Shown: one piece after another, positions 4,050 to 32,000 of the stretch
How the letters are laid out: the number at the start of each line of letters is the position of its first letter
Numbering within the stretch: the first letter of the stretch is position 1
NCBI RefSeq assembly: GCF_022701215.1
Contig: NZ_CP089976.1
Location: forward strand, 1,500,001 to 1,532,000
Source: Moraxella nasovis
GTDB lineage: Bacteria > Pseudomonadota > Gammaproteobacteria > Pseudomonadales > Moraxellaceae
Reading direction: 5' to 3'
Length of the DNA: 32,000 nucleotides
Notes under the pieces: model-generated
Database searches by the model: none
Told to the model about the DNA's origin: nothing
What the model saw: only the letters and a program-made list of their open reading frames with translations
Program-made: the position numbers and the translations under genes

Positions 4050-4147
4050 GAATGATAAGTTTTGGGCGTGCATTTGTTGGCACTATAATAAATGAACTAC
4101 AATACCAACAAAATTCATGGATTGCAATCCATCATCATGGATGCATA

Positions 4148-4229
4148 CAGACAACAAAACCGCCAAAACCCCATAAAACAAAAAGGTTGTCGGACAATGT
4201 CGGACAACCTTAGAGTAGAATATGGGGTG
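4148..4229 (+). repeat. 82-bp direct repeat (left copy), attL-side boundary of the main island
   Basis: 78/82 identical by eye to 16054-16135. It ends in tggggtg, which matches the last 7 nt of tRNA-His. A degenerate pseudo-tRNA 3' end continues to about 4245. It contains a copy of the hairpin terminator (4185-4209). Confidence 0.85.
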
Positions 4230-4296
4230 TAATGAACTTCACACATTTATTGTAAGTTATTGTATTTATTTAATATTTTATTTTAAATTTTTAATT

Positions 4297-4320
4297 ATAC
4301 CGTAAAATATACCGTAATTT
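4297..4320 (+). promoter_or_regulatory. Putative arm-type integrase binding sites (left arm)
   Basis: ATACCGTAA-aat-ATACCGTAA is the same 24-nt string as at 15996-16020 next to int. The function is inferred. Confidence 0.45.
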
Positions 4321-4762
4321 TACAAAGCAACCCCCATTTTTGATTAAATTTTAACCATTTTTAGCCCACTTCCTAACGATTGACAGCAGCCAATAAAAAG
4401 CGGTTATGGGTGTCAGATTTTCGCCTATTTGTGTAATTTTATGTAACTTTGTTTCAATGGATATTTTCGGAGAAAATTCCCAAACAAAAAATTTTTTTTA
4501 TGCGTGGGAAAAGGGGCGGTGTCCACTGGACGGGCTTTGTAATTTATCGCACACCCCCCGAACGGTGGGCGTGTTTTTTGTGGTGGGATTGGGCTTGATG
4601 GTGGGCGGTGCTTATGGATTGCCTGTTAATTGGTAAATGGGCTTGATATGGGGCGGGTGGTGGCATTCTAATGATAAAAGCCCCATCGTGTCGCCTTAAA
4701 TCTAGGTATTGCGTACTTTTCTATCATCACGCCATCAATGCACCGTATTACAACACTGCTAC

Positions 4763-5037
4763 AACATTAAAATAATTCAATTAATAATAAAACTTGATGA
4801 ATAAAATTTAATTTACCCTTTGTTTTTTTTATTTTTTTACCCTAAAAACCGTCCAAATTATCCAAATTATGAAAAAATACCCCTGTAAGCCTTACTACAT
4901 AAGGGCTTATAATTTGGATTTAAAATCCAAATGAAAACCAAATTATAAATATCTAAGCCAAATATTAAGCCCTTATCATCGTGCAAGCCTTTAATATCAA
5001 GGGGTTCATAATTTGGATAATGATTTTATAATTTGGA
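4763..5037 (+). repeat. Iteron-rich ~275-bp inverted repeat, left copy (IR-L)
   Basis: Reverse complement of 13514-13788, roughly 90-93% identical by eye. It holds 8 or more TCCAAAT/ATTTGGA heptamers and a perfect 21-nt palindrome, atttggatttaaaatccaaat, at 4914-4934. Confidence 0.85.
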
Positions 5038-5090
5038 TTGGTTGGATTGTTTGGGTAGTGTGTCAGCTGTGCCAAAGATTTAATGATGGG

Positions 5091-5330
5091 CAGGCGTGGG
5101 CGGTGGTTCACGCCTGCACTTTTGGCGGTGTTTTTTTTTGATATGGTGGATAGTAGGGCGGATTTGTTGCCATATTTGCCCCATTTTGGGGGTTTTTAGC
5201 GTGGTTTGGGGTTTAGGTGGTGTTATCCCCTTGCCAAATGCTAAAAGGGCTATTTGGGGTGTTTTAGGGCGTGAATAATGGGCAATAAAAAAACAAGGGG
5301 TATTTTGCCCCTTGTTATGGTGTGCTCGAT
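5091..5330 (+). repeat. Dispersed mosaic G/T-rich element, copy A
   Basis: Shares these modules with copies at 7857, 10640, 12490 and 14450: caggcgtg..cacgcctg hairpin, ttcacgcctgcacttttggcggtg box (5107-5130), gatttgttgccatatttgccccattttgggggtttttagcgtgg core, and a terminator. Confidence 0.8.
5286..5320 (-). terminator. Rho-independent terminator after the primase operon
   Basis: caagggg-tattttg-ccccttg hairpin at 5294-5314, with a T-run on the minus strand (A-run at 5286-5293 on plus). Identical hairpins lie at 10877-10897 and 13310-13330. Confidence 0.7.
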
Positions 5331-5341
5331 ATAGTTGGGAG

Positions 5342-7570
5342 TTAAGCGGTTAATAATATGGGGTTAAGTTCTATCACTCGTTTGGTGCGTCTATAACTTG
5401 GCATATCGACAAGGCAAACATAATTACCGTCGCTAAGTGTTTCTAAGGCGTTATCTAGCACCTGCACGGCTCGCAAATCTTTGGGTAGTGCTTGTTGTAG
5501 GCTTGAATAAAAAAACCTACCTACACCGTGATTGCTTGGCTTATAGGCGTTCTTGATAAGCCATTGTAATAATCGCTCTGCGTCTGTAATGTCGGTTACT
5601 ATCTCGCTATATCTGCGACGCTCCGCCATGGAATATTCAACGATTTTAATCGCCCCTAATATATCCGCTTCATCAATCGCACGACTACCCTTAAACCAAG
5701 CAAACAAGGTGGCAATGCGTGTGGCATTCTCTACCATGCGTGAAGCGTAAGCCTTGTAGTGTTCATTGATGCCGCCTTTGGTTTGGCTAACTTCTACCGC
5801 TTGCCAAAACTTTTCAGCGATAGCCAAGGCGGGGGCTTGCCATGCCATTTTTTTACGTTTTGCCCCTAGCTCTGGCAATGATAAAAAGTTATGGCATTTT
5901 TTCCAATAGGTTTGTAATGTGGGGTCATGCTCTGGGCTGTCTTTTATCAGCTGTCTTATACCCCTGTTATCAGGTGGAAAGGCAAATAAACAACGTGGTA
6001 ATAAGCCTTGATTGTTTAATTTAATGTCATTTAGGGCTGGTTTTAAGGCGACTTCTTGGGCGGATAAAAATAACGTCAAACGCACGTCATAGGCGGCTTG
6101 TGCGTTGCCATTGCTTATCGTGATACGTTCAGCTTTGCCGTGGCTGTATATGTCGCATAACGCACCAATAGAAGCCCCTGCCGTTTCTGATTTTAAACTT
6201 GCCCCTTCAAGTAAATTTGCCCCTTCGTCTATGGTGTAGCTGGCGTTTAAATAATTGCCATCGGTAAAGCCTTGCATGATTTTTTGAATTGAACCGCTCC
6301 CAAACATTGCCCTAGGGTCTTTGGGTAGGTGGTTTTGGTTTTTAAAGGCGGTCATCTCTTTTTTGGTTTTGCCCGCCATTTCATTTTCATAGCTTATTTT
6401 ATTTTCCATAAAGTCTTGATAGCTTTGTTTTTCATGGTCGTTAATGGCTTTGTGGGTAATTTTGATGGTTTGGGTTTTACCGCTCCCACTTTCGCCCTGT
6501 ACCATAAGATATAGGCTTGATGGGTTGTAGCCTTGGCTTAGGTAGGGTGCGTCTATGAACCCTTGTCCAATATGACTGATTGCACCTAGCACCCCAAAAC
6601 TCGCCATAGATAACGGCACTTGCCCATAATAGGCGGTGCGTTCTATTACATGGGCTAGGTCTTTTGGGAATGCGTCAAGTGGGAAAGGCGTTTCTACGTT
6701 TTTTACTTCATCAAATGGGATAAGCTCGCCCCATTTTTCGCTGTCTTTGGCGTTGTCGCCTGTGCTTGTGGTGGTGCTTTTGGCGGTCGTGCTGGCGTGA
6801 ATGCTGGTTAAATCATCGTTATTATTCACGCCTGCACTTTTGGCGTGATAGGCTTGTGCGTCCAAGCGTGGCAAGCCAAGGATTTTATCAATGATATGGC
6901 GGTCATCGTTGCCTTGTTGTCTTAAAATCTCTATATAATCAAATACATCAAAACCCTTTGGCATGATTTGGCTGGTGCTGGCGTGATACTCTTTGGCTAA
7001 TGTATCCACGTCTATCACGTCCACGCTTACACCCATCTCGTGTAGGCGTTGTGATAGCTCTGTTTGCCATTTGTCGCCCACATCGTCATAATCACGCCAT
7101 AACACCACATGACAGCCCATAAGGGGCGTTAAATCGGTGGTTTTTAGGCTCGTACTTGCTCCGCTTGTGGTGGCGGTTATGCCAAAGTTAGTTAATGCGT
7201 CTGCACATTTTTCGCCTTCCACAAAATACACCTTAGCAGGTTTTGGCATGGTGTTTTTATCCAGTAGGGGCAAATTATACAAAGGCTTTTTACCGTCTAT
7301 AAAGCGTGCTTTTGGTTCGCCCACATGAAAACCGCTGTTATCGTGATACATGGGCTTAATCCATTTATTGCCATCTTTGGCAAATCTAGGCTTAAAATAC
7401 AGTAAATGACCGTCTTTGTCGGTGTAGGCGTGAACGCCCCTAAAGTGGGCTTTTAGGTTAAAATTTAGCCCCTTAAACTGTCTATCACTTGCCATTAAAT
7501 GATTAAAAAGGGCTTGGATAAACTCAAAACTTAGTAAATCTTTCACACTAAGGCGGTTTTGCGTGTTCAT
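5342..7570 (-). CDS. Toprim-domain primase fused to a DUF3987-like P-loop NTPase (replicative primase/helicase of the island)
   Basis: The N-terminal Toprim signature is VYFVEGEKCADAL ... LWRDYDDVGD. A Thr/Ser/Asn-rich linker follows. The C-terminal Walker A is GESGSGKT, in a YfjI/DUF3987-like region. Confidence 0.8.
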   Translation of the reverse strand: MNTQNRLSVKDLLSFEFIQALFNHLMASDRQFKGLNFNLKAHFRGVHAYTDKDGHLLYFKPRFAKDGNKWIKPMYHDNSGFHVGEPKARFIDGKKPLYNLPLLDKNTMPKPAKVYFVEGEKCADALTNFGITATTSGASTSLKTTDLTPLMGCHVVLWRDYDDVGDKWQTELSQRLHEMGVSVDVIDVDTLAKEYHASTSQIMPKGFDVFDYIEILRQQGNDDRHIIDKILGLPRLDAQAYHAKSAGVNNNDDLTSIHASTTAKSTTTSTGDNAKDSEKWGELIPFDEVKNVETPFPLDAFPKDLAHVIERTAYYGQVPLSMASFGVLGAISHIGQGFIDAPYLSQGYNPSSLYLMVQGESGSGKTQTIKITHKAINDHEKQSYQDFMENKISYENEMAGKTKKEMTAFKNQNHLPKDPRAMFGSGSIQKIMQGFTDGNYLNASYTIDEGANLLEGASLKSETAGASIGALCDIYSHGKAERITISNGNAQAAYDVRLTLFLSAQEVALKPALNDIKLNNQGLLPRCLFAFPPDNRGIRQLIKDSPEHDPTLQTYWKKCHNFLSLPELGAKRKKMAWQAPALAIAEKFWQAVEVSQTKGGINEHYKAYASRMVENATRIATLFAWFKGSRAIDEADILGAIKIVEYSMAERRRYSEIVTDITDAERLLQWLIKNAYKPSNHGVGRFFYSSLQQALPKDLRAVQVLDNALETLSDGNYVCLVDMPSYRRTKRVIELNPILLTA

Positions 7571-7596
7571 TTGTCTTGTTTTCCTGTTATCTTATC

Positions 7597-8157
7597 TTAA
7601 ATATCTAAATTCAAATCACGGCAAGCGGTCAAAAAGTCGCAATTATGATAACGCTGGTAAAAATCAAGCACATCGCCACCACTCGCCCCACACCCAAAAC
7701 AAAAAAACGCCCCTGTTTGGCGGTTAATACTTAGGCTTGGTGTTTTGTCGCCATGAAATACGCATTTTACGTTAGTTTGATTGCCTTTTAGGGCAATGCC
7801 ATAACGTGCGTAAAAGCTCACTGGGTCGGGTTTATTGTCCGTGTTCATGCGTTTTTGTGGGCGGTTTTGGCTTGCATTGCTATAGGGCAAATGATAAGGC
7901 GGATTTGTCGCCATATTTGCCCCATTTTGGGGGTTTTTAGCGTGGTTTTGGGCGTGGGTGGTGTTACCCCCTTGATGGGGGTTAAACGTGCCATTTTGGG
8001 CGGTTTTGGCGGTCGTGCTGGCGTGAGTGTTGTTATTTGAACAGTTGTCCACGCCTGCACTATTTGCCCCATTTGTCGCCCTGTCGGTGGTGGGCTTTTG
8101 TGAACCAAACAAGCCTTGATTAAAAAATGATGGTCTTTTAAAGAATGAATGGCTCAC
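7597..8157 (-). CDS. CHC2 zinc-finger primase-like protein with a low-complexity N-terminal extension
   Basis: The C-terminal CVFHGDKTPSLSINRQTGAFFCFGCGASGGDVLDF is a DnaG-type CHC2 finger. GTG 8157 is preceded by the SD AAGGGGGT. An alternative start at ATG 7848 would give an 83-aa finger-only protein. Confidence 0.75.
   Translation of the reverse strand: MSHSFFKRPSFFNQGLFGSQKPTTDRATNGANSAGVDNCSNNNTHASTTAKTAQNGTFNPHQGGNTTHAQNHAKNPQNGANMATNPPYHLPYSNASQNRPQKRMNTDNKPDPVSFYARYGIALKGNQTNVKCVFHGDKTPSLSINRQTGAFFCFGCGASGGDVLDFYQRYHNCDFLTACRDLNLDI
7857..8075 (+). repeat. Dispersed mosaic element, copy E (lies inside the long form of the zinc-finger ORF)
   Basis: Shares ttgcattgctatagggcaaatgataaggcg.atttgtc.cc.tatttgccccattttggg with copy D, and ccccttgatgggggttaaacgtgccattttgggcg with copy C. 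Confidence 0.75.
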
Positions 8158-8187
8158 GTTACCCCCTTGTTGTGCTTGATGATTGGT

Positions 8188-8568
8188 TTAGCCGTCTGAT
8201 ATGCTCACGGTCTTAATGAATGCTTGTGCGGTCGGTAAGCTATTAGCATAATGCTGGGCTTGGGTCTCATCATCAAAATAATGACAAGCCATAACAAAAT
8301 GCTTAGGCTTACCAGTACCGAACATCACGCCATTTGGGATAAATGGGGCAATGTCTTTAAAACTTACATGATTGCACGGCTGGAAAGGCGGTTTATTGCC
8401 ATCGTTGCCATTATTGATAAATCTTGTATGCTTATAGCCTGTAATGTCGGCGTTGGGATAATCTAGCTTGACTTGTTCAAGAAATACCAAGGCACTTTCT
8501 TTGTTGGCGAACTCTTTGTAAATCCGTGGATTGTTACAGCTTATTGAATAGTAGATAACTTCAATCAT
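8188..8568 (-). CDS. Hypothetical protein (126 aa)
   Basis: Long ORF translationally coupled to the upstream gene (ATGA overlap, SD AAAGGGGGTG). No family recognised. Confidence 0.6.
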   Translation of the reverse strand: MIEVIYYSISCNNPRIYKEFANKESALVFLEQVKLDYPNADITGYKHTRFINNGNDGNKPPFQPCNHVSFKDIAPFIPNGVMFGTGKPKHFVMACHYFDDETQAQHYANSLPTAQAFIKTVSISDG

Positions 8569-8819
8569 TTTACACCCCCTTTGGTGGTATTATTGACGGC
8601 TGGCGTGTCGGCGGTTAATCGCTCTAAGGCTTGGTTAAGTTCTGTTTGGGCGGTCTCTACTGCTTGCCATATCAGCATTATCATGGCTTTAGTGCGGTCT
8701 AGCTCTGTACCCGTATCCATGCCATGATACAGAAAATAAACCCCCGCTAATGCGTCATCTAGGGCGTTTTTTGCGTCTTCTATGTCAAATAAAACATTGC
8801 TATGGTTATTAAGGCTCAT
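8565..8819 (-). CDS. Hypothetical protein (84 aa)
   Basis: ATGA overlap at both ends and SD AAAGGGGGTG. No family recognised. Confidence 0.6.
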   Translation of the reverse strand: MSLNNHSNVLFDIEDAKNALDDALAGVYFLYHGMDTGTELDRTKAMIMLIWQAVETAQTELNQALERLTADTPAVNNTTKGGVK

Positions 8820-9352
8820 TTTGCACCCCCTTTAATTGCGTTTAAAATGCGTTTTAAGGCACTTTTAGGCTTAGGTGGTGCATAGGTAGCACAAGGGGCG
8901 TTATCAAGCGATTTTAGGGCGTGTATGGCGTTATAAATGGCATTGGCACGCTCACAATAGCCGTTAAAGGGTTCTTGGGCGTGTAGCTCATTATAGCGGT
9001 GGTATTCGTCTGTTAAGACGGTTAGGGAATGGGATAAAATAGATTGGTTCATGTTGTAGTTACCTTTCGAAGTTTTGGAAAACACCCCAAAAATAGGGTG
9101 GGCTGGAAGTTCGAAAACCGCTACAACAACGGCGTGTGGTATTGGGTATTTCCACACCTTCCAACCCATAAGAAAGGCAACCGACAAAAAAGCGGTTAAA
9201 TTCTGATAGGCATAAAAAATCCAAGTATTTCGCCCTTGGTTGGCGGTTGTAAAGCAGTTTTCGACGCTGCGGGCGATATTCTGCAATACTGCTTGAATTT
9301 TATCAAGTGATAAAATTTCATCAAAAATACGTTTAATGTGAATTAAATTCAT
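8816..9352 (-). CDS. Hypothetical protein (178 aa; start uncertain)
   Basis: A 178-codon open frame in AT-rich DNA. ATG 9352 lacks an obvious SD. The internal ATG at 9052 (MNQSILSH..) is an alternative start. Confidence 0.5.
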   Translation of the reverse strand: MNLIHIKRIFDEILSLDKIQAVLQNIARSVENCFTTANQGRNTWIFYAYQNLTAFLSVAFLMGWKVWKYPIPHAVVVAVFELPAHPIFGVFSKTSKGNYNMNQSILSHSLTVLTDEYHRYNELHAQEPFNGYCERANAIYNAIHALKSLDNAPCATYAPPKPKSALKRILNAIKGGAK

Positions 9353-9436
9353 GCTATAATCTATCCATCTTGTTATCTTACCTAAACCGCTTTATCTGTC
9401 ATGGATAAGGCGGTTTTTGTATGGTAGGTGTGGCGG

Positions 9437-9655
9437 TTATTGTATGCTATCGCTTTCGTCTGCAAGCTCTTGTAAAATTTCGTGCTTGATGGCGTGAATG
9501 TCGCTCATCATGCCTTGGCAAATATGACGCATTTTTTTAATGCGTTTTTCGTGTTTGGATAGTTTTTTATCAAATCTTGCCAAAGTCTTGATAACATCGC
9601 TTAAATTCTCATCGCAAATTTTGGCGGTGCGTTGGGTGCTGGTGTTTTGTTCCAT
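9437..9655 (-). CDS. Hypothetical protein (72 aa, predicted helical and charged)
   Basis: ORF with SD aaagga upstream. An imperfect hairpin follows at about 9389-9417. Confidence 0.5.
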   Translation of the reverse strand: MEQNTSTQRTAKICDENLSDVIKTLARFDKKLSKHEKRIKKMRHICQGMMSDIHAIKHEILQELADESDSIQ

Positions 9656-9717
9656 GGTGGTTTCCTTTGGTTTTGGCTTGGTTAAAATGGGTTTGGGTTC
9701 TTAAAGTCTATTGGTGC

Positions 9718-9918
9718 TTATTTTTTACCAGTCCAATAGCCCCATTTTTGCATGGTATCTGTACCCCATATAAGCATATTCATATAACCATAGCCCGCTT
9801 TTTCGTTTAGTTTTACTAGCCTATTCCAAAAAGCATTTTCGCTTAGGCGTTTACCTGCTTTGGTGTAGGGTGTGATTTCGTGCATTTCTTGACGTGCTTT
9901 TTGCATTTTTGGGGTCAT
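9718..9918 (-). CDS. Hypothetical protein (66 aa)
   Basis: Tightly packed after 9920-10213, with SD aaggtaag. No family recognised. Confidence 0.5.
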   Translation of the reverse strand: MTPKMQKARQEMHEITPYTKAGKRLSENAFWNRLVKLNEKAGYGYMNMLIWGTDTMQKWGYWTGKK

Positions 9919-9919
9919 G

Positions 9920-10213
9920 TTACTTACCTTTTTTGGTGGTTTTGGTTTTGGGTTTATTTAAAATCTCTTCACGAAGTGCCATAGCTTTTACTTTGTCTTT
10001 GATGAAGTAGCGTTTAAAGCGTGAATTTTCGGTTTCGTGCCATTGCCAATCAATGATAAAACCTAGCTTTTTAAGCTCTGCAATACGGCTTGATAGGCTG
10101 ACCACGTTTAGCACGTTTACGGCATATAGGACGTGTACACCGTCGCCGTCTAGCATGGCTTGTAGTACTTGCCATTTTTGGCGGTTTTTGTGGGCGTGGG
10201 TAATGGGTATCAT
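9920..10213 (-). CDS. Putative winged-helix DNA-binding protein (97 aa)
   Basis: Strong SD (aaggag). The segment VVSLSSRIAELKKLGFIIDWQW resembles the HTH_39-type winged helix common in P4-like islands. Assignment is from memory of the motif. Confidence 0.5.
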   Translation of the reverse strand: MIPITHAHKNRQKWQVLQAMLDGDGVHVLYAVNVLNVVSLSSRIAELKKLGFIIDWQWHETENSRFKRYFIKDKVKAMALREEILNKPKTKTTKKGK

Positions 10214-10241
10214 GGTTTAACTCCTTATGGTCTGTTTGGGC

Positions 10242-10493
10242 TTATTGTTTGGCTTTGGGTTGGTATTGTGCCAAGTCGTCTGCACTTTCAAGGTTATCTA
10301 ACCACGCCAAAACATCGCTATTACGCCATGCACTCATGCTAGTAGATAGCTTGATGGGTTTTGGGAATTTGCCTTGTTTTATCCAGCCGTAAATCGTGGA
10401 TTTGGACAGCCCCACCATCTTGCAGACCTTATCAATACGGCTAATGCCTTTGGGGTGGAAAGTATCGTTTTGGGTTTGGGTGGTTTTGGTCAT
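10242..10493 (-). CDS. alpA: AlpA-family transcriptional regulator / excisionase-like (83 aa)
   Basis: ISRIDKVCKMVGLSKSTIYGWIKQGKFPKPIKLSTSMSAWRNSDVLAWL matches the AlpA/MerR-type HTH signature. The start is taken at ATG 10493, which has the SD ggag. Confidence 0.85.
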   Translation of the reverse strand: MTKTTQTQNDTFHPKGISRIDKVCKMVGLSKSTIYGWIKQGKFPKPIKLSTSMSAWRNSDVLAWLDNLESADDLAQYQPKAKQ

Positions 10494-10544
10494 TGGTTTA
10501 CTCCGTATGTGTTCATTTGGGCTTTGTCGCACTGTAAATAAGTT

Positions 10545-10573
10545 GCGTGCGAAAATTATAGGCGTGTACGAAA
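10545..10573 (-). promoter_or_regulatory. Candidate promoter of the alpA-to-primase operon
   Basis: The minus strand reads TTGTTG-17 nt-TATAAT, about 50 nt upstream of alpA. Confidence 0.45.
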
Positions 10574-10639
10574 ATAACAACAACGCAATACCCTGCTATC
10601 TGTACACTTAGGGGGGGTATCTATAAAAACGGAGTTTTA

Positions 10640-10925
10640 GGCGGTTAATGCAAAAAGGGCGAAACAGCAGGCGTGGGCGGTGTGTTTTTATCGTTCACGC
10701 CTGCACTTTTGGCGGTGTTGTTGTGATATGGTGGATAGTGGGGCGGATTTGTTGCCATATTTGCCCCCTTTTGGGGGTTTTTAGCGTGGTTTGGGTGGTG
10801 GGTGGTGTTACCCCTTGCCAAATGCCAAAAGGGTTATTTGGGGTGTTTTAGGGCGTGAATAATGGGCAATAAAAAACAAGGGGAATTTTGCCCCTTGTTT
10901 TGGTGTTGGTGTTGGTGGTGCGTGG
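10640..10925 (+). repeat. Dispersed mosaic element, copy B
   Basis: Near-colinear with copy A. The box is at 10694-10717 and the hairpin halves at 10668-10675 and 10696-10703. Confidence 0.8.
10870..10903 (-). terminator. Rho-independent terminator after the 267-aa gene
   Basis: caagggg-aattttg-ccccttg hairpin at 10877-10897. T-runs are present on both strands. Confidence 0.7.
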
Positions 10926-11729
10926 TTATTTGTCTTTTTGGGCTTTATGGGCTTTATGGGCTTTATGGGCTTCCCTTAATGTGCCATATATCCATTCATA
11001 TTTCTTGTTTTCTAGGTTGTCATGTATAAAAACATATTCGGCGGTTTGTGTGAAGTTAAAGCCCTTATCCTGCATGATTTTTAGGTATCTTTGTCCTAAT
11101 TGCTTTCTTTCTTGGCGGTGTGGTTCTGTTGCTTTTAGGGCGTTTTGTCGTCCTTGTTCGCTTTGTACTTGGCGGTGTATGTCTTCTTTGGTTTTATCGT
11201 CAATCATACCTAGCGTTAAAATTCTATCTTGTGGCAAGCCATGTAGATACTGCACACCGCCTAGCACTTTCAAGGCGTGATTTTTGAGTAAATGGGCGTA
11301 AAAGGGCTTTTTGCGGTCGTGGTAAATCTGTGCAAATTGCTTAAATACCAAATGCAATGTTACCATCTCAACCGCTCTTTGTCTGACCGCTGGCGGTGGT
11401 AGCTCTATATTTGGGTTAGCCTTGGCAAGGCAATAAAAAAGGTGGTCTATGGCGGTGCTAGGTGGTGTATTGGTGCGTATGTGGTTAAATAGGCGGGGGA
11501 ATTGATAGCCTTTGGTTTCTTGTTGTAGTTTTTGACAAATGGCGTGAATGTCTGTAATACAAGCGTGGCAATTTTGCCAAAATTCATCGAAATGACTAAA
11601 ATTGCCAAAAAATGAAAAGGCAATTTCTGCAAAATCTTGTTTACTCACGCCCATACCAATATCAAAAAAATCACCAAGTTTAAGGGAGTTAAATTCTTTG
11701 GCTAGTGCTTGAAATGTTTTGTTGTTCAT
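10926..11729 (-). CDS. Hypothetical cargo protein (267 aa from ATG 11729; 272 aa from ATG 11744)
   Basis: Long ORF with the SD aagg before ATG 11729. The C-terminus carries an (AHK)x3 repeat. No domain recognised. Confidence 0.65.
   Translation of the reverse strand: MNNKTFQALAKEFNSLKLGDFFDIGMGVSKQDFAEIAFSFFGNFSHFDEFWQNCHACITDIHAICQKLQQETKGYQFPRLFNHIRTNTPPSTAIDHLFYCLAKANPNIELPPPAVRQRAVEMVTLHLVFKQFAQIYHDRKKPFYAHLLKNHALKVLGGVQYLHGLPQDRILTLGMIDDKTKEDIHRQVQSEQGRQNALKATEPHRQERKQLGQRYLKIMQDKGFNFTQTAEYVFIHDNLENKKYEWIYGTLREAHKAHKAHKAQKDK
10940..10971 (+). repeat. Tandem 9-bp repeat gggctttat x3 (plus a partial copy)
   Basis: Seen directly. It encodes the AHKAHKAHK tail on the minus strand. Only two units are present in the orphan copy at 13361-13382. 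Confidence 0.85.
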
Positions 11730-11783
11730 CTCATACCTTACCATACCTTAAAAAAGATAGCAGGCGTGGCGGTCTAAGGTATG

Positions 11784-11805
11784 AAAAATAACCGCCTTTC
11801 GGTTA
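11784..11805 (-). terminator. Weak hairpin/T-run downstream of doc
   Basis: taaccg-ccttt-cggtta hairpin with a T-run on the minus strand. The stem is short. Confidence 0.35.
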
Positions 11806-11830
11806 ATTACTCCTAGCCTGCTAAAAGGGT

Positions 11831-12196
11831 TTAAACTGTTAAATCTTTTAAAATATCTGCAAGGTGGGTATAATTCATTTCACTGCTTGCCACTTTTACC
11901 ATCAAATCATCTAATCCGCTATTGGGGGCAATGTTAATACCTTGCATATCCAAATAAGTTAACATAACCACAAGGGCGGTTCTTTTATTGCCATCATTAA
12001 AGGCGTGTGCTTTGGCTAATGCTACGGCATAAAATGCCCCTATCAAATATACATTATCCAATGGCTCATAACTCATTTGATTGTCAATGCGTGATAAGCA
12101 ACTTTCAAGGCTTGCCATGCTTGCAATGCCCTTTAAGCCTTTTTCATTTGCCAAAATCTCGTCATGAATGGCTATCACAAAATGTATATCAATCAT
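11831..12196 (-). CDS. doc: Doc (death-on-curing) / Fic-family toxin
   Basis: 121 aa with the Doc-type Fic motif HAFNDGNKRTA. Confidence 0.85.
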   Translation of the reverse strand: MIDIHFVIAIHDEILANEKGLKGIASMASLESCLSRIDNQMSYEPLDNVYLIGAFYAVALAKAHAFNDGNKRTALVVMLTYLDMQGINIAPNSGLDDLMVKVASSEMNYTHLADILKDLTV

Positions 12197-12327
12197 TTAT
12201 CCGCCAATGCCTTAATTTCTTTTTTATGGGTATTCATAACACGTTTGGCAGAGTTTAAAATTACTCGTTTTCCTGCTTCACCTGTTAAGTGCATAATAAC
12301 TGGCTTGGTGTTGGTGGGTTTACTCAT
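12193..12327 (-). CDS. 44-aa putative antitoxin partner of Doc
   Basis: Translation is MSKPTNTKPVIMHLTGEAGKRVILNSAKRVMNTHKKEIKALADK*. Its stop overlaps the doc ATG (ATGA). It is not in the ORF track (<60 aa) and not recognisably Phd-like. Confidence 0.6.
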   Translation of the reverse strand: MSKPTNTKPVIMHLTGEAGKRVILNSAKRVMNTHKKEIKALADK

Positions 12328-12380
12328 GGTGTTTTGTTATCCTGTTAAAATTACGCTCGTATTTGTTTGGATTGCTTGAA

Positions 12381-12409
12381 ATTGTAGCAAACTAATAATC
12401 CAATGACAA
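12381..12409 (-). promoter_or_regulatory. Sigma70-like promoter of the antitoxin-doc operon
   Basis: The minus strand reads TTGTCA-17 nt-TACAAT. Confidence 0.55.
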
Positions 12410-12489
12410 TAAAAACCAATCCATGCCAAGCCATAGGCGGTTAATATGGTGTGGGGAAATAAGCTATTGTTATCACAACAATACCTACA

Positions 12490-12720
12490 AAAGGCGGTTA
12501 ATGCAAAAAGGGCGAAATGGCAGGCGTGGGCGGTGTGTTTTATCGTTCACGCCTGCACTTTTGGCGGTGTTTTTTTGATATGGTGGATAGTGGGCGTATT
12601 TGTCGCCGTATTTGCCCCATTTTGGGGGTTTTTAGCGTGGTTTGGGGTTTAGGTGGTGTTACCCCCCTTGATGGGGGTTAAACGTGCCATTTTGGGCGTT
12701 TTGGTGCGTTTTGATTGCGT
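12490..12720 (+). repeat. Dispersed mosaic element, copy C
   Basis: The box is at 12546-12569 and the hairpin halves at 12521-12528 and 12548-12555. The right end matches copy E rather than copies A and B. Confidence 0.8.
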
Positions 12721-12821
12721 TTTATAATTTTATGAAGTGCAAGGGTTGGATTTTGAATAATTTTCGGATAATAAAAAAGCCAAATTTTTAATATAATTTT
12801 TATGCAAAATGTATAAATTGA

Positions 12822-12850
12822 TTGACTTATAAGGTAGTTTAGAATATAAT
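12822..12850 (+). promoter_or_regulatory. Near-consensus sigma70 promoter
   Basis: TTGACT (12822-12827), a 17-nt spacer, then TATAAT (12845-12850). Confidence 0.65.
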
Positions 12851-12943
12851 ATAAACAACAAGGCAAGAGTTGCAGCTCTTGCCTTGTAGGCGGTAGATTG
12901 TTCATGCAATCTATTAAACCCACCAGTAGAAGGAGTAAAAGCG

Positions 12944-13009
12944 ATGAAGACTTTATTAAAAATCGCAATTATCCTTGTGTTATGTATCTTACTAAAATCT
13001 AGCAGTTAA
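12944..13009 (+). CDS. 21-aa hydrophobic peptide (type I toxin-like or leader peptide)
   Basis: Translation is MKTLLKIAIILVLCILLKSSS*. The SD aggag lies 8 nt upstream. The 5' UTR holds an 11-bp-stem hairpin (12859-12886). Confidence 0.5.
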   Translation: MKTLLKIAIILVLCILLKSSS

Positions 13010-13089
13010 GTCAAGCCATAGCACAACGACCGCCCTAGTGGTATCGGGGCGGTTCGCTACTAAGTGGAATATTTGAACAAGGTTAAATC

Positions 13090-13302
13090 ATGCCAAAAAT
13101 TATCAATACACCAAAAACACGCCTACAAATCCAAAAAGACAGCGATACCAAGCGGGGTATTAAGTCCATAGGTTTTAAAGTGCCTATTGAGTTTGCAAAC
13201 CGTCTTGATGAACTTGCCAAGCAAACAGGCAAAACTAAAAACATCATTATCATGGAGGCGGTGGAGCTATGGCAAGCCAACCATGCTAATAATGGGCAAT
13301 AA
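13090..13302 (+). CDS. Ribbon-helix-helix (CopG/Arc-like) DNA-binding protein (70 aa)
   Basis: IGFKVPIEFANRLDELAKQTGKTKNIIIMEAVELW fits the beta-alpha-alpha RHH pattern. It is co-oriented with the small peptide ORF. Confidence 0.6.
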   Translation: MPKIINTPKTRLQIQKDSDTKRGIKSIGFKVPIEFANRLDELAKQTGKTKNIIIMEAVELWQANHANNGQ

Positions 13303-13385
13303 AAAAAAACAAGGGGTATTTTGCCCCTTGTTATGGTGTTGGTGGTGCGTGGTTATTTGTCTTTATGGGCTTTATGGGCTTATTC
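13290..13385 (+). repeat. Orphan copy of the terminator plus 3'-end block of the 267-aa gene
   Basis: Aligns by eye with 10861-10975. It includes the hairpin at 13310-13330, ggtggtgcgtggttatttgtct, and two gggctttat units. Only about 8 terminal codons remain before an in-frame stop. Confidence 0.75.
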
Positions 13386-13513
13386 CCATGCTATCAAGCC
13401 ATTTTGTAACGCTCATTACCGCCCCTTTGTCGGTGTTTGGGCTTGCCTTGATAGTATCATTTTATAGTATCAAATGATGATACTAAATGCCAACCCTTTA
13501 CCAATTCCCACCG

Positions 13514-13788
13514 TCCAAATTATAAAACCATTATCCAAATGATGAAACCCTTGATATTAAAGGCTTTCATGATGAATAAGGGTTAATATTTGGATTAAAT
13601 ATTTATAATTTGGGTTTCATTTGGATTTTAAATCCAAATTATAAGCCCTTATGTAGCAAGGCTTACAGGGGTATTTTTCCATAATTTGGATAATTTGGAC
13701 GGTTTTTAGGGTAAAAAATAAAAAAAAATAAGGGGTAAATTAAATTTTATTCATCAAGTTTTATTATTGATTGAATTATTTTAATGTT
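13514..13788 (-). repeat. Iteron-rich ~275-bp inverted repeat, right copy (IR-R)
   Basis: Reverse complement of 4763-5037. Confidence 0.85.
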
Positions 13789-13919
13789 TTGTGCTATGTC
13801 AATACATAATAATAAAAAAGTACGCAACGCCCACACTTAACCGCCCATCATGTCGCCATTTAATAAAATAGGGTCATGCTGGGCAAGGCGTGGCGGTGTA
13901 GTGGTGGCTTTTACTGAAA

Positions 13920-14220
13920 ATTTAGTAAACGCCCACGATTTTTTACAATTTACCGCCAAAAGTACAGGCGTGAACCGTGAATAAATATAAATAATCATAT
14001 AAAAATTAGTATCGCTTAATAATAAAAAATTTCGCCCCGCAAAGACGGCAAAAAATCTAAATCACGCTACTAAAAAACACAACAAGCCAACCGCCAAAAA
14101 AACACTCCGCCCTTTGGCTCAAAAATGGGCAAAAGTCCGCCCACGCCAGCACCGCCAAAAAGCGATGATAGGGCGGTAAAATCACAAGGGCAAAAGGCAA
14201 GGGAAAAACACCAAAACAGA
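13920..14220 (-). repeat. Partial inverted copy (F) of the mosaic element (C/A-rich on the plus strand)
   Basis: accgccaaaagtacaggcgtgaac at 13951-13974 is the reverse complement of the 24-nt box with 1 mismatch. Box fragments such as cgcccacgcc and caccgccaaaa follow. The similarity is patchy. Confidence 0.5.
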
Positions 14221-14400
14221 CAAGGATTATTTAATAATATAAATAATAATTAAATAATATATTTATTATTTTTATTTAATTTGGGGGTTTTCTCGCGCGC
14301 GTGCGTGATGGCAAATTTTTATATATGTAATAATATAACATAACATATATTATATTAAATAATAATATATTTATGTTATATTTTATTTATTATTATTTTA
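14221..14400. other. AT-rich block with an alternating CG core (candidate DNA-unwinding element or origin)
   Basis: Two stretches of almost pure A/T (14228-14280 and 14318-14400) flank ttctcgcgcgcgtgcgtgatgg. A 12-bp inverted repeat, aatataacataa / ttatgttatatt, lies at 14332-14343 and 14371-14382. Confidence 0.45.
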
Positions 14401-14449
14401 TGGTTTTTTATGGGGGCTTTGTGATTTGTTGGGGTGTTTGCCTTGATTT

Positions 14450-14630
14450 GTGGGCGTGGGCGGTGTTTTGTTGGTTCACGCCTGCACTTTTGGTGGTGGT
14501 GTTGTGGTATGTCGGTGGTTTTGGTTTGCATTGCTATAGGGCAAATGATAAGGCGTATTTGTCACCGTATTTGCCCCATTTTGGGTTAAATATCAAAAAG
14601 GGGCGAAATGGCAGGCGTGGCGGTCATTGC
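14450..14630 (+). repeat. Dispersed mosaic element, copy D (overlaps the integrase stop codon)
   Basis: The box is at 14475-14498. It shares the ttgcattgctatagggcaaatgataaggcg module with copy E. Confidence 0.75.
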
Positions 14631-15967
14631 ATTCCTTTGATTTCTAATAGCTCCGCTTGGTGCGTGGCAAGCTCGCCATGCAAAATTGCACCATTTTTAT
14701 AAATCCGCCCTAAAAATAACGCCAAATCATCGCTTGAACCATCGGCAGTTAGACGCTTTCGGTAGGTGCTAAAATCTCCGTCTTTGATTTCATCGACAAT
14801 ATCCGCCCATTCTTTCATCATCTGCATTCTTTTGGGTATCATGTCGGCGTGGTTGTAGGCTCGTTCGGTCTTATCCTTGCTAACGTGTGCCAACTGCAAT
14901 TCAATGGCTTTGGGGTTGTACTGCATTTCATAAAGGGACGTACTAGCCAAACCACGAAAGCCGTGCCCTGTCATTTTGTCTTTGTAGCCCATGCGTTTTA
15001 GGGCGGTGGTTAGGGCGTTGGGCGATAGGGTTTCACGCTGTTTACTGCGATTGCTAAAAAACACAAATTCATCATGTAACCGCCATTCTTTAATTGTTTG
15101 CAAAATCTCTATTACTTGTGGGGCAAGCGGTACAACGTGCGTATTACGGCATTTCATGCGTTCGGGCGGTATCGTCCAAAGGCAAGTATTAAAATCAATT
15201 TCCACCCATCGCATACCAAACAGCTCATTAGTTCGCACGAAAGTATAAGCCATCACATAAAACGCATATTTGGTTAATGGCTCTAAATTGGCGTTGTCAA
15301 TGTCTGCTAGTAGCTTTGGTAGCTCGGTAATTTTTATGCGGGGGTAATTAGTTTGTTTGTGTTCAACCAATGATTTATGAATACCCCTTGGAATGGGATT
15401 TAATAGATTTGGGGCAAGCCCTTTAATGATGGTGTGTTCAAATATCGCACTTATCCAGCTTACCGCCTTATGTGCCATGTTGGTTTTGCCATTTAATGCC
15501 AAGCGGTCATGCACCGCTAGCACGTCCGATAATTTGACGTGATAAATGTTCATATTTCCCAAAATGGGCTTGATATGGTTTTTGTAGGCGTTGCTGTCTC
15601 GTTTAAAGGTGGCAGGGTTAATGCGTTTTTCTTGGTGCTGTAGCCATATTTGGGCGAAATGGTCAAAGTCTAGGGTGTCTTTTTGCTTGGCTTTTTGGCG
15701 TTCGTCTTTGGGGTTTATGCCTTGGCTTGCCAGTTCACGAATGCGGATATTTTCGCTTCGTGCTTGTGCTAGGCTTATCATGGGATACTTGCCTATGGTA
15801 ATTTCTTGTGTTTTGCCATTAAAAGAATAGGCACTAATAAATGACTTTGTTCCACTATGCCTAATCAGTACCATCAAGCCGTTACCGTCTGAAATTTTAT
15901 CGGGGCGGTTGGCGGTGCATTTTTCGCTAGGTTTTAGGCGTTTTAGGGCGGTATCTGTCAGGCTCAT
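14624..15967 (-). CDS. int: P4-type tyrosine integrase (DUF4102 arm-binding N-terminus plus phage integrase catalytic domain)
   Basis: 447 aa. The N-terminus is MSLTDTALKRLKP..DGNGLMVLIRHSGTKSF. Catalytic-region motifs are HGFRGLASTSLYE and LAHVSKDKTERAYNH. It lies adjacent to a tRNA. Confidence 0.92.
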   Translation of the reverse strand: MSLTDTALKRLKPSEKCTANRPDKISDGNGLMVLIRHSGTKSFISAYSFNGKTQEITIGKYPMISLAQARSENIRIRELASQGINPKDERQKAKQKDTLDFDHFAQIWLQHQEKRINPATFKRDSNAYKNHIKPILGNMNIYHVKLSDVLAVHDRLALNGKTNMAHKAVSWISAIFEHTIIKGLAPNLLNPIPRGIHKSLVEHKQTNYPRIKITELPKLLADIDNANLEPLTKYAFYVMAYTFVRTNELFGMRWVEIDFNTCLWTIPPERMKCRNTHVVPLAPQVIEILQTIKEWRLHDEFVFFSNRSKQRETLSPNALTTALKRMGYKDKMTGHGFRGLASTSLYEMQYNPKAIELQLAHVSKDKTERAYNHADMIPKRMQMMKEWADIVDEIKDGDFSTYRKRLTADGSSDDLALFLGRIYKNGAILHGELATHQAELLEIKGMQ

Positions 15968-16020
15968 TTACGGTATAATTTAAAATTGAACTCATATACC
16001 GTAAAATATACCGTAATTTT
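15968..16020 (+). promoter_or_regulatory. Putative arm-type integrase sites (int-proximal arm)
   Basis: One inverted copy, ttacggtat (15968-15976), plus ATACCGTAA x2 (15996-16016). Confidence 0.45.
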
Positions 16021-16053
16021 TCATAGATTGCAATAAACCAATACGGACTAATG

Positions 16054-16135
16054 CAGACAACAAAACCGCCAAAACCCCACAAAATAAAAAGGTTGTCGGA
16101 CAATGTCGGACAACCTTAGAATAAAATATGGGGTG
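16054..16135 (+). repeat. 82-bp direct repeat (right copy), overlapping the tRNA-His 3' end
   Basis: 78/82 identical by eye to 4148-4229. Confidence 0.85.
16081..16115 (-). terminator. Rho-independent terminator downstream of tRNA-His (carried on the island end)
   Basis: ggttgtc-ggacaatgtcg-gacaacc hairpin at 16091-16115, with a T-run on the minus strand (16081-16090). Confidence 0.6.
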
Positions 16136-16205
16136 AGTAATGGGACTTGAACCCACGACAACCGGAATCACAATCCGGGGCTCTACCAACTGAGCTATAC
16201 CCACC
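16129..16205 (-). tRNA. tRNA-His (GTG)
   Basis: Folded by hand as a cloverleaf: extra G-1, anticodon loop TTGTGAT, T-arm GGTTCAAGTCC, encoded CCA. Confidence 0.9.

Positions 16206-31634: not shown

Positions 31635-32000
<366 letters not shown>

Follow-up and report, generated by a model that had tools for sequence, protein, structure and literature searches.

A G/T-rich cassette of ~200 bp is present in five direct copies (A, E, B, C and D) in a small island of the integrase–AlpA–primase type inserted at tRNA-His in Moraxella nasovis. This five-copy mosaic repeat is real. What is conserved across the island family, however, is the 9-mer GCAGGCGTG, overlooked in the original prediction, and not the long element. 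Because the cassettes carry this family-marking 9-mer, they are most plausibly DNA-level control sites. To judge from their sequences, the copies could be paralogous, non-autonomous, cis-acting DNA cassettes of the island replication module, iteron/crr-like and spread by gene conversion, a reading that we favor tentatively and rate somewhat short of probable.

Copies and modules of the cassette

The window (the whole stretch of 32,000 nt analysed) contains an island with PICMI/P4-like gene content. The island genes are on the minus strand and the G/T-rich strand of the cassette is the plus strand (copy A). The relevant features are as follows.

4696–5046, unstranded: left arm of a 350-nt inverted duplication, 86% to its partner at 13506–13840
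5085–5335, plus: copy A, with the inverted 9-mer pair (5090–5098/5109–5117), box c (5107–5130), d1 (5139–5154), core (5162–5204), f1 (5227–5261) and a bidirectional terminator (5294–5314)
5342–7570, minus: Toprim + DUF3987 primase-helicase, 742 aa
6773–6848, plus: partial copy within the primase-helicase ORF, with module h (6782–6800), box c (6825–6848) and the 9-mer (6827–6835)
7597–8157, minus: CHC2 zinc-ribbon (DnaG-type) primase subunit, 186 aa, GTG start, AAGGGGG ribosome-binding site
7846–8075, plus: copy E, with d2 (7872–7901), core (7903–7945), f2 (7968–8002), h (8008–8026) and the 9-mer (8050–8058)
10639–10925, plus: copy B, with module a (10639–10664), the 9-mer pair (10667–10675/10696–10704), box c, d1 (10724–10739), core (10747–10789), f1 (10811–10845) and the terminator (10877–10897)
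11760–11768, plus: solitary GCAGGCGTG, 16 nt upstream of the start of the 272-aa gene
12492–12720, plus: copy C, with a (12492–12517), the 9-mer pair (12520–12528/12548–12556), box c, d1 (12576–12591), core (12598–12640) and f2 (12664–12698)
13090–13302, plus: RHH gene, its 3' end within the next feature
13288–13381, plus: chimeric fragment, the right end of B (terminator at 13310–13330) joined to the 3' end of a 272-aa-type gene
13506–13840, unstranded: right arm of the inverted duplication, partner of 4696–5046
13951–13976, minus: inverted box c of 24–25 nt, one mismatch in the 9-mer, 96% similarity (blastn)
14444–14626, plus: copy D, with a degenerate left arm (14450–14465), box c (14475–14498), d2 (14526–14555), truncated core (14557–14585), a-like module (14597–14609) and the 9-mer (14611–14619), 5 nt beyond the int stop codon

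A blastn self-comparison recovered the five direct copies within a few bases of their predicted positions, with identities of 89% over 244 nt for A–B (E 1e-73), 85% over 220 nt for B–C, 89% over 129 nt for C–E, 92% over 76 nt for E–D and 79% over 128 nt for A–E. The copies clearly exceed shuffled sequence: Smith-Waterman z values among the five range from 8.3 (A–D) to 62 (A–B), and the observed scores were reached by none of the 200 dinucleotide-preserving shuffles. All copies are confined to one orientation. Every sub-module of the predicted mosaic was located exactly, namely the 24-nt box, GCAGGCGTGGGCGGTG, the alternatives d1/d2, the core, the alternatives f1/f2 and the caagggg..ccccttg terminator; the inverted repeat, predicted to have a spacer of 10–20 nt, has spacers of 10, 20 and 19 nt. 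Several modules are identical between copies: d2 in E and D (30/30), f2 in C and E (35/35), and h in E and the primase gene (19/19).

The count of five direct copies stands, but the partial copy at 6773–6848 and the fragment at 13288–13381 had been missed; similarly, A and B do end in the terminator, but its extra occurrence at 13310–13330 had escaped notice. The gene end in the chimeric fragment is 98% identical to 10907–10954. Of the patchy inverted copy F proposed at 13920–14220, only the box at 13951–13976 is significant; as a cassette copy, the rest has a noise-level profile score (E 0.009). This region flanks the inverted duplication.

As proposed, four copies lie at module boundaries. 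Copy A is past the primase stop and terminator, 45 nt from the left arm of the inverted duplication, which is dense in ATAATTTGGAT iterons and origin/crr-like. Copy B separates the 272-aa gene (stop at 10926) from the alpA operon (alpA start at 10583), copy C is flanked by the divergent promoters of two operons, Doc toxin and peptide-RHH (promoter-like sites at 12409–12381, minus, and 12822–12850, plus), and copy D begins 5 nt past the int stop. A promoter scan found no sigma-70-like promoter inside the copies.

In agreement with the original prediction, the element is neither a CRISPR, given its irregular kilobase-scale spacing, nor an integron attC, with no IntI and no R''/R' consensus, and it matched no Rfam family. 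Its restriction to the island also held for the sequences searched: no copy lies in the chromosome that flanks the island within the window (~20 kb), the long element had no match in species-representative genomes, IMG/VR, phages, plasmids or related islands, and the core had none in GTDB (one genome per species). Among the islands examined, the cassette is multiplied in this one only.

Translated copies and the phased core

Copy E lies within the alpA-to-primase operon, as originally described, but is not intergenic: it falls entirely within the ORF at 7597–8157 and encodes the disordered, low-complexity linker of the zinc-ribbon subunit. We consider it coding because the N-terminal motif of this ORF (M..H..F.RP.FF) is kept in 12 homologues and the NCBI annotation also gives 186 aa. 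Among relatives of this protein, the N-terminal motif and the zinc ribbon are conserved and the linker is hypervariable. The partial copy at 6773–6848 is read as ..AKSAGVNNN..HASTTAK.. and forms an insertion in the inter-domain linker of the primase-helicase compared with its homologues, so that the linkers of both replication proteins carry cassette sequence.

The core spans ~60 bp and comprises five T-tracts in helical phase and three ~11-nt (C/A)AAAT..GG.G sub-repeats. The T-tract spacing in A, B, C and E is 12, 9, 9 and 12 nt (mean 10.5), and this phasing suggests intrinsically bent DNA. The 35-nt core AACCACGCTAAAAACNCCCAAAATGGGGCAAATA recurs with 33/35 matches, every third codon position among them, in the zinc-ribbon linker of the Moraxella marmotae island L241, whereas the two zinc-ribbon proteins are only 41% identical; judged by this alignment, the core is conserved at the DNA level where the protein is not. 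The L226–L231 family shows a weak core match at the same linker position (E 0.059). Both GCAGGCGTG and the 35-nt core are older than the long element.

The 9-mer across Moraxella islands

An exact GCAGGCGTG was found in 10/10 Moraxella islands of the int–AlpA–primase kind examined, and it is the top-ranked k-mer shared among the islands. Six islands (54 kb) contain 51 exact copies versus 0.15 expected, and only 28 one-mismatch variants; the density is about 0.94 per kb in islands compared with about 0.06 per kb in sampled chromosome. The window has 12 copies versus 0.21 expected, 11 of them within the island, and the islands of M. ovis and M. marmotae each have 11 per ~11 kb. Between the M. 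bovoculi and M. oculi islands, which are 91–96% identical, 11/11 sites are kept, and the solitary site at 11760–11768 is matched in position and flanks in locus L011. The 9-mer occurs in both orientations and is scattered across the whole island, including the int-proximal cargo, with no origin-like clustering. In 8/8 clustered islands it is found together with the genes for the zinc-ribbon and Toprim-DUF3987 proteins; a Psychrobacter plasmid-borne island with the helicase and no zinc-ribbon gene lacks it.

Inside ORFs, GCAGGCGTG is mostly read as Thr-Pro-Ala (13/17) or Ala-Gly-Val (8/12), and the zinc-ribbon linker carries it in either orientation. Its retention in ORFs, and in either orientation in this linker, points to selection that would act on the DNA, not on the peptide.

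Possible roles of the cassette

Under the replication reading that we favor, each cassette would consist of an inverted GCAGGCGTG pair, forming a 9-bp hairpin or two monomer sites, the bent ~60-bp core and variable flanks. Copy E would be the home copy, embedded in linker-coding sequence, from which four intergenic sites received a cassette and the primase-helicase linker part of one, with patchy gene conversion keeping the copies alike. The zinc-ribbon subunit and/or the primase-helicase may bind the cassettes, which would then serve as origin-auxiliary or copy-control arrays, and the hairpins would incidentally end transcription at module ends. Among the roles originally proposed, primase or regulator binding arrays fit best, given the core DNA conserved in a distant zinc-ribbon linker, with binding presumed. 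The closest parallels are P4 ori/crr, where type I iterons are bound by the alpha primase-helicase, and plasmid iteron or copy-control arrays: shared features are a small integrative satellite-type replicon with its own primase-helicase, short asymmetric sites in both orientations, repeated ~100–200-bp blocks kilobases apart (here with a putative cis action on replication) and, in M. nasovis, a duplicated iteron-rich region. Unlike in P4, the candidate binders are the DUF3987/Toprim and separate zinc-ribbon proteins, whose homology to alpha would be conjectural; the 9-mer is spread through the whole island and into ORFs, and islands whose replication proteins differ widely share it unchanged.

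Several observations sit uneasily with replication cassettes. The 9-mer is invariant although the island primase-helicases are 35–59% identical and the AT-rich iterons differ, which is unusual for initiator–iteron pairs, and the helicase C-terminal domain does not track its presence. Also to be noted are its dispersal, the multiplication in a single island, the recombinational instability to be expected of five 200-bp direct repeats, the fact that copy E is not AT-rich, and the strand-polarised, low-level chromosomal 9-mers (10:0), which an island-encoded binder does not explain. In lambda, Zahn and Blattner reportedly placed the origin, with its phased A/T tracts (bent DNA), within the stretch of gene O that codes for a flexible inter-domain linker, a location resembling that of copy E. 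Unlike the lambda origin, E contains no adjacent AT-rich unwinding element, its host gene encodes a primase zinc-ribbon subunit rather than an initiator, and the cassette has four extra intergenic copies.

The copies could, rather improbably in our estimate, be antisense small-RNA genes. An extended -10 TGATATGGT, identical in A, B and C, would start a ~45-nt plus-strand RNA ~8 nt downstream, ending at the hairpin GCCCCATTTTGGGGG followed by TTTTT (5155–5199, 10741–10785 and 12592–12636) and nearly fully complementary to the E segment of the zinc-ribbon/primase mRNA; its targets would be D and E, d2 would serve as a second promoter module, and the outcome would be a countertranscript- or P4 CI RNA-like shutdown of the replication genes for immunity or copy control. 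A terminator-like hairpin and T-run is present on the plus strand of A, B, C and E and retained, in shifted register, in L241, and the alignment is invariant over precisely the putative transcript, with d1/d2 interchanging upstream and f1/f2 downstream. The predicted duplex with E mRNA (-81 to -84 kcal/mol versus about -30 for shuffles) is trivial given the homology. As in P4 immunity (CI RNA, seqA/seqC) and plasmid countertranscripts, short repeats lie in the transcript leading to the primase gene, and these islands use structured RNAs, encoding an sRNA-Xcc1 family RNA of C4/CI-like shape in the same operon. However, this RNA has no significant complementarity to the cassette, and its closing stem varies between islands whereas GCAGGCGTG does not. 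The lack of a -35 element, the empty promoter scan, the missing conserved final T of the -10 in the d2 candidates, conservation that runs on for ~15 nt after the T-run (AGCGTGGTT), more than a terminator requires, and the 9-mers in ORFs in both orientations all speak against such genes. Also unlikely, and slightly more so, is that only GCAGGCGTG is active, as a density-selected Chi-like or uptake/packaging word, with the cassettes as mere vehicles that put a pair of it, in opposite orientations, between modules. The word is G-rich and ends in GCGTG, like known Chi sites. As with DUS/USS and Chi, an exact 9-mer, outnumbering all its one-mismatch variants, is hugely over-represented at about 1 per kb in both orientations, forms inverted pairs just past stop codons and is tolerated in ORFs in particular, benign frames. 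The word could protect linear DNA after injection, or concatemers from rolling-circle replication, against RecBCD-type nucleases. Concatemeric replication and packaging with random ends are known from PICMI satellites, whose core genes are the same (PMC10803314). The nasovis-clade chromosome contains ten copies in 110 kb versus ~0.5 expected, all on the G-rich strand, but the bovis-clade chromosome has none in 63 kb despite 10–15 per bovis-clade island; by strand difference the word ranks just 88th of 68,579 9-mers, in a small sample whose regions are orthologous and not independent. Moreover, GCAGGCGTG exceeds every known Chi in length, is far less dense in the chromosome than USS/DUS, being concentrated in mobile islands, and leaves the conserved bent core unexplained.

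We give least weight to RNA-level punctuation, in which the cassettes would be transcribed spacers: their hairpins would stop or insulate transcription in either direction and stabilise the mRNA upstream, and their C-rich, G-poor sense strand would load Rho. This strand has 33–36% C and 14–18% G (C/G ratio 1.8–2.6), folding is better than in shuffles for both strands (z -3.6 and -3.8), A and B end in strong bidirectional terminators, and each of A, B and D comes right after a stop codon. The cassettes resemble enterobacterial BIME/REP as extragenic mosaics of a palindromic unit and alternative linking motifs, hairpin-forming, recombination-prone and located at gene ends; unlike these, they are not genome-wide as far as the flanks and the GTDB search (core, one genome per species) go, lie in one orientation, have no RAYT transposase and include a translated copy. 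Copy C, between divergent promoters, is not behind a gene, translation of E and of the primase fragment excludes Rho loading or termination there, solitary 9-mers in ORFs form no hairpin, and DNA-level conservation in a distant linker is unexpected for a terminator.

PICMI satellites share the minimal set of int, alpA and DUF3987 primase, the absence of capsid genes and a size of about 12 kb (PMC10803314). Unlike these, the M. nasovis island is at tRNA-His rather than fis, in a different host family, and has a separate zinc-ribbon gene and repeats of a kind not reported for PICMI.

Functionless recombination scars or linkers that remain from exchange among related islands, serve as its substrates and stay similar through gene conversion seem scarcely more plausible than punctuation. 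At a background identity of 91–96%, the 9-mer is kept at 11/11 sites (chance for all eleven about 0.002), the core is conserved across deep divergence and the 9-mer is maintained in ORFs in benign frames; selection therefore appears to be at work. In favor of such scars, exactly identical modules occur in otherwise diverged copies, the chimeric fragment joins an element end to the RHH gene, and homology-block ends lie nearer to GCAGGCGTG than random positions (median 120 versus 278 nt, in a confounded comparison). In the L226–L231 family, one 106-nt hairpin element and a 74-aa gene form a presence/absence difference bounded exactly by two element copies; together with the identical modules, this indel lends some support to the original suggestion of boundary sequences that promote exchange.

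Island and cassette architecture

The cassettes, five direct G/T-rich copies of ~200 bp denoted A to E, lie within an island of ~11.8 kb that adjoins tRNA-His (16129-16204) and carries nearly all of its genes on the minus strand. The features of the island are the following:

4114-4229 and 16020-16135, direct repeats at the island ends, 87% identical
4296-4321 and 15995-16020, direct repeats at the island ends, 100% identical
5342-7570, minus strand, Toprim + DUF3987 primase-helicase, 742 aa
7597-8157, minus strand, CHC2 zinc-ribbon protein
9075-9166, minus strand, RNA of the sRNA-Xcc1 family (RF02221), within a mechanical ORF (8816-9352) in the alpA-to-primase operon
9920-10213, winged-helix protein
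10242-10583, AlpA
10926-11744, 272-aa protein
14624-15967, P4-type integrase with Arm-DNA-bind_3
further genes of the island: Doc toxin with a 44-aa partner, and small ORFs

Among described island types, the closest is the PICMI satellite, with int, alpA and a DUF3987 primase (PMC10803314); the M. nasovis island possesses this PICMI/PICI-type core and contains no structural genes. Both the primase-helicase and the leucyl-tRNA synthetase of the window are 100% identical to M. nasovis proteins.

The repeat that had been predicted from the sequence is real: in self-blastn comparisons, A and B are 89% identical over 244 nt, B and C 85% over 220 nt, C and E 89% over 129 nt, E and D 92% over 76 nt, and A and E 79% over 128 nt. 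The question raised with the original prediction, whether the copies are no more alike than shuffled G/T-rich sequence, is answered by the shuffling test, all ten pairs of copies yielding local-alignment scores above every one of 200 dinucleotide-preserving shuffles (z of 8.3 to 62). Each of the sub-modules named in that prediction was recovered at its exact coordinates, and the pattern is truly mosaic: module d1 is present in A, B and C, and its alternative d2 in E and D (30/30 nt identical); f1 is present in A and B, and f2 in C and E (35/35 identical); an additional module, h, is identical (19/19) between E and the primase gene. The caagggg..ccccttg hairpin is a bidirectional terminator, strong on the gene strand but weaker on the opposite one, and occurs for a third time at 13310-13330.

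Copy E lies inside the alpA-to-primase operon, as had been proposed, and is moreover coding, being wholly translated within ORF 7597-8157, which starts with a GTG behind AAGGGGG and for which the NCBI annotation gives the same 186-aa product. The first ~25 residues of this protein (M..H..F.RP.FF.Q..F) are kept in the zinc-ribbon proteins of related islands, and E encodes the low-complexity linker that joins this N-terminal motif to the zinc-ribbon. A cassette fragment at 6773-6848 is likewise translated, as part of the linker that connects the Toprim and helicase portions of the primase, where it is an insertion compared to the homologues. A coding origin for copies A to D is rejected because the reading frame of E contains stop codons in A, C and D.

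The sixth, inverted copy (F) that had been claimed does not hold up: the match is limited to the 24-25-nt box at 13951-13976 (96%), and the copy profile scores the remainder at noise. This region adjoins an inverted duplication of 350 nt (4696-5046 / 13506-13840, 86% identical) with many ATAATTTGGAT iterons in either orientation; the duplicated segments are an origin/crr-like pair that brackets most of the island. The iteron pairs differ in related islands, for example, in locus L001 (5943-6124 / 12261-12446), and the M. marmotae island (L241) contains tandem 462-nt repeats with GGGGAAAAT runs. The segment 13288-13381 duplicates the right end of B together with the 3' end of the 272-aa gene, and the RHH gene terminates within it.

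The conserved core and the 9-nt word

The five copies share an invariant centre, GATTTGTYRCCRTATTTGCCCCNTTTTGGG, which is extended by GGTTTTTAGCGTGG in all copies except D; D stops after TTTTGGG. The T-tracts of the core start 12, 9, 9 and 12 nt apart (mean 10.5 nt), a phasing that is the signature of intrinsically bent DNA, so that a bend is predicted here; on the antisense strand, the core reads as a small hairpin followed by a T-run. Outside the window, a search with the copy profile identified a single strong relative, within the linker of the zinc-ribbon gene of the M. marmotae island, where 33 of 35 nt are identical, all third codon positions included, at only 41% identity between the zinc-ribbon proteins. 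The second island family (loci L226-L231) shows a weak match at the same place (E 0.059). Together, the strong and the weak match make the zinc-ribbon linker look like the ancestral home of the core, which, among the islands compared, is multiplied in M. nasovis only.

The long element appears to be private to the M. nasovis island. It is absent from the related islands of M. bovis, M. bovoculi, M. oculi, M. ovis and M. marmotae, from those in Logan assemblies and from the L226-L231 family; blastn against phage and plasmid collections returned no matches; and blastn and nhmmer searches of 240 fetched loci detected only the hairpin module and the linker core of L241 and L228. REP and BIME elements typically number hundreds of extragenic copies across a host chromosome; for the present element, no copies are present in the window flanks (~20 kb, the coverage of M. 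nasovis outside the island), and the 29-nt core pattern has no match among the GTDB representatives (one genome per species, for species other than M. nasovis) or in IMG/VR. No copy has an Rfam 15 match, whether at the gathering score or with E<=1, and neither a described repeat class or RNA family nor a paper matching the element was found.

The stems of the inverted repeat within the cassette are an exact, non-palindromic 9-nt word, GCAGGCGTG, which also occurs outside the cassettes. The word occurs 12 times in the window, compared to 0.21 occurrences expected, and 11 of the 12 are within the island. It is the top-ranked k-mer common to six Moraxella islands, which in 54 kb contain 51 exact copies against 0.15 expected, with all 27 one-mismatch variants combined contributing only 28 copies in the same islands. 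The M. ovis and M. marmotae islands carry 11 copies each per ~11 kb, and the L226-L231 family, with a primase-helicase that is only 35% identical, carries 9 to 17 per 8-11-kb locus and includes a 106-nt intergenic hairpin element. None were found in the loci of primase relatives outside Moraxellaceae or in a Psychrobacter plasmid-borne island. The literature search yielded nothing relevant on this word or on a Moraxella uptake sequence.

Both orientations of the 9-mer occur, and close pairs, spaced by 10-26 nt, always directly follow a stop codon; in four islands, a copy lies 5-8 nt past the int stop codon or overlaps it. The predominant readings within ORFs are Thr-Pro-Ala (13/17) and Ala-Gly-Val (8/12). 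Islands differ in the orientation that the word takes in the zinc-ribbon linker, which favours selection at the DNA level over selection on the peptide. An alignment of the M. bovoculi island with that of M. oculi (91-96% identical) shows no change at any of the 11 aligned sites, and the chance of all eleven surviving at ~94% identity is ~0.002. A secondary word, GGCGGTTA(AT), is also enriched in islands, is partly encoded by the conserved zinc-ribbon INRQ motif and lies 10-25 nt from the 9-mer in several islands.

Known classes and alternative readings

As had been proposed, the element is neither a CRISPR, with copies of 180-290 nt at spacings of 2741, 2844 and 1851 nt rather than evenly spaced direct repeats of 28-37 nt, nor an integron attC: the integrase is of the P4 type rather than IntI, no RYYYAAC or GTTRRRY core sites are visible, and the R''/L''-L'/R' sites have no counterpart in the sequence. 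It is not a MITE either, for which terminal inverted repeats and a target-site duplication would be expected, given that the ends of the copy alignment are ragged and differ between copies and that the sole inverted repeat is internal. The alternating palindromes of REP and BIME elements are not seen, all cassette copies and units being in a single orientation, although one 9-bp inverted pair per copy and the alternative modules d1/d2 and f1/f2 are BIME-like. The 9-mer itself resembles DUS/USS as an exact word that occurs in both orientations, forms inverted pairs behind genes and is frame-biased in ORFs, but the chromosome-wide density of DUS/USS (~1/kb) far exceeds that of the 9-mer, with 10 copies in 173.5 kb. 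In kind, the element resembles iteron/crr arrays, BIMEs and USS/Chi-type words; it differs from them in a combination of features, being private to a satellite-like island, running partly through protein linkers and built on an exact, family-wide 9-mer.

It is a reasonable possibility, albeit short of a probable one, that the cassettes are a cis element of the island replication module; the replication proteins would, we infer, bind the cassettes and affect replication. The closest analogies are the P4 ori/crr, plasmid iteron arrays and the lambda ori, which sits in the linker-coding part of gene O. Pointing to such a role are the nucleotide-level conservation inside a replication gene, the predicted bent DNA, the fragments in the linkers of both replication proteins, the closeness of A to the iteron-rich duplication, and the joint presence of the 9-mer, the zinc-ribbon gene and the Toprim-DUF3987 gene in 8/8 clustered islands. 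Against this reading, the 9-mer is dispersed over the whole island and does not co-vary with the replication proteins as iterons and the P4 crr do: it is identical across islands whose primase-helicases share 35-59% identity, and the AT-rich iterons differ between islands. The C-terminal domain of the helicase was rejected as the reader of the 9-mer inasmuch as it does not track the presence of the word: the Psychrobacter island lacks the 9-mer but has a homologous domain, and in locus L012 the word is present but the domain divergent. The cassettes might instead specify an antisense RNA, a 45-nt transcript of A, B and C that would complement E in the zinc-ribbon/primase mRNA and would end at the hairpin and T-run. 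This reading explains the invariant core alongside the alternative upstream and downstream modules, and an identical extended -10 element (TGATATGGT) is present in A, B and C ~8 nt upstream of the would-be RNA; however, the promoters are weak and the conservation extends beyond the T-run.

Alternatively, the cassettes could be carriers of a Chi/USS-like word selected for its density. The evidence comes from the chromosomes: in a sample of 173.5 kb from eight Moraxella genomes, the 9-mer is found 10 times (0.058/kb compared to ~0.94/kb in the islands), and all 10 copies are from the nasovis clade (loci L233, L236, L237 and L239, and position 31692 of the window), where ~0.5 would be expected, and present the G-rich form on the G-rich strand, lying within genes of either orientation. 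This polarity is Chi/KOPS-like, in a small sample of orthologous regions in which the 9-mer ranks only 88th by strand difference. Chi is expected to be over-represented and strand-skewed in every recognising host; here, the nasovis clade shows a 10:0 skew, and 63 kb of bovis-clade chromosome contain no copies. Possibly, though more unlikely than not, the 9-mer is a mobile-element-owned 'self' word of a whole family of Moraxella int-alpA-primase islands that follows the population logic of USS and Chi, the cassettes being its amplified carriers; it would be maintained at ~1 copy/kb in both orientations, within genes too, where it runs through disordered linkers as Thr-Pro-Ala or Ala-Gly-Val; and its putative reader, a conserved factor, could be a zinc-ribbon primase with sequence specificity, a system of nuclease protection or a packaging protein of a helper phage. 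No Moraxella helper phage, a possible origin of the word, was found in the phage collection. A role in REP/BIME-like RNA punctuation is in line with a C/G ratio of 1.8-2.6 on the sense strand and with both strands folding better than shuffles, although the position of C between divergent promoters and the translation of E speak against it. Finally, the copies could be recombination debris, as suggested by the exact identity of modules between copies, by an element-plus-gene indel that falls exactly between two element copies in the L226-L231 family, and by homology-block ends that are closer to 9-mers than random positions (a confounded comparison); the signs of purifying selection argue against such an origin.

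If the cassettes and the 9-mer are replication recognition sites, they would represent a rare cis replication signal written through protein-coding linkers and would hint at a primase subunit that recognises a long sequence. Should the 9-mer be a Chi/USS-like, element-owned word, it would show that satellites can evolve their own genome-wide 'self' signal. Either way, the 9-mer is a simple computational marker of an unannotated family of Moraxella islands that occur in livestock pathogens (M. bovis, M. bovoculi and M. ovis), and supplies concrete oligonucleotides for binding, priming and protection assays.

Small RNA and other island elements

The sRNA-Xcc1-like RNA consists of a closing stem and two hairpins and has its own terminator in the window. 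Relatives were identified in L008 (8071-8154), L228 (5382-5465) and L226 (7324-7407 and 7726-7809) with scores of 53.5-56 bits, above the gathering score, and in L001 (8622-8708) and L004 (4506-4589) with 50-51 bits; the score in the window is 32 bits. The 'protein family' common to all islands is probably this sRNA region read as protein. In Xylella islands, tandem sRNA-Xcc1 copies adjoin C4/isrK RNAs (PMC12189769). Pairing of this RNA with the cassette or the 9-mer was considered and rejected: only 13-nt terminator-like matches were detected (E 0.39), and the closing stem varies between islands whereas the 9-mer does not. Upstream of the sRNA region, L004, L008, L011 and L012 share a conserved stretch that reads ENISL..GVLSQN..AVTPN..NWLF..ILQNKPIGEY, is tandemly duplicated in L012 (5807-6133 and 6136-6504) and has no counterpart among protein families; possibly, it is a further non-coding element.

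In the second island family, L228, L229 and L231 (ERZ1023418, ERZ1023471 and ERZ1023409) are 8-9-kb contigs with 400-712x coverage, compared to 17-124x for large contigs with the same element, indicative of a multicopy or extrachromosomal state. In this family, a 74-aa gene is variably present and is flanked by one or two copies of the 106-nt hairpin element.

Repeats of TACCGTAA at both ends of the M. nasovis island (4114-4321 and 15995-16135) resemble integrase arm-type sites; the 9-mers, located kilobases away, were rejected as such sites. Upstream of the RHH gene, the plus strand of 12822-13009 contains a strong promoter-like sequence (TTGACT-17-TATAAT), then a hairpin of 12 bp at 12858-12887 and a hydrophobic ORF of 21 aa, MKTLLKIAIILVLCILLKSSS, and looks like a type I toxin. 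The hexamer GGCGGT is strand-biased within the island (4230-16020), with 48 occurrences on the plus strand and 10 on the minus strand, the respective counts in the 19.6 kb of flanks being 14 and 8. In the M. ovis island (L240, 3346-3480), ~15 tandem copies of the 9-nt CCAGCCATT directly follow the integrase gene.
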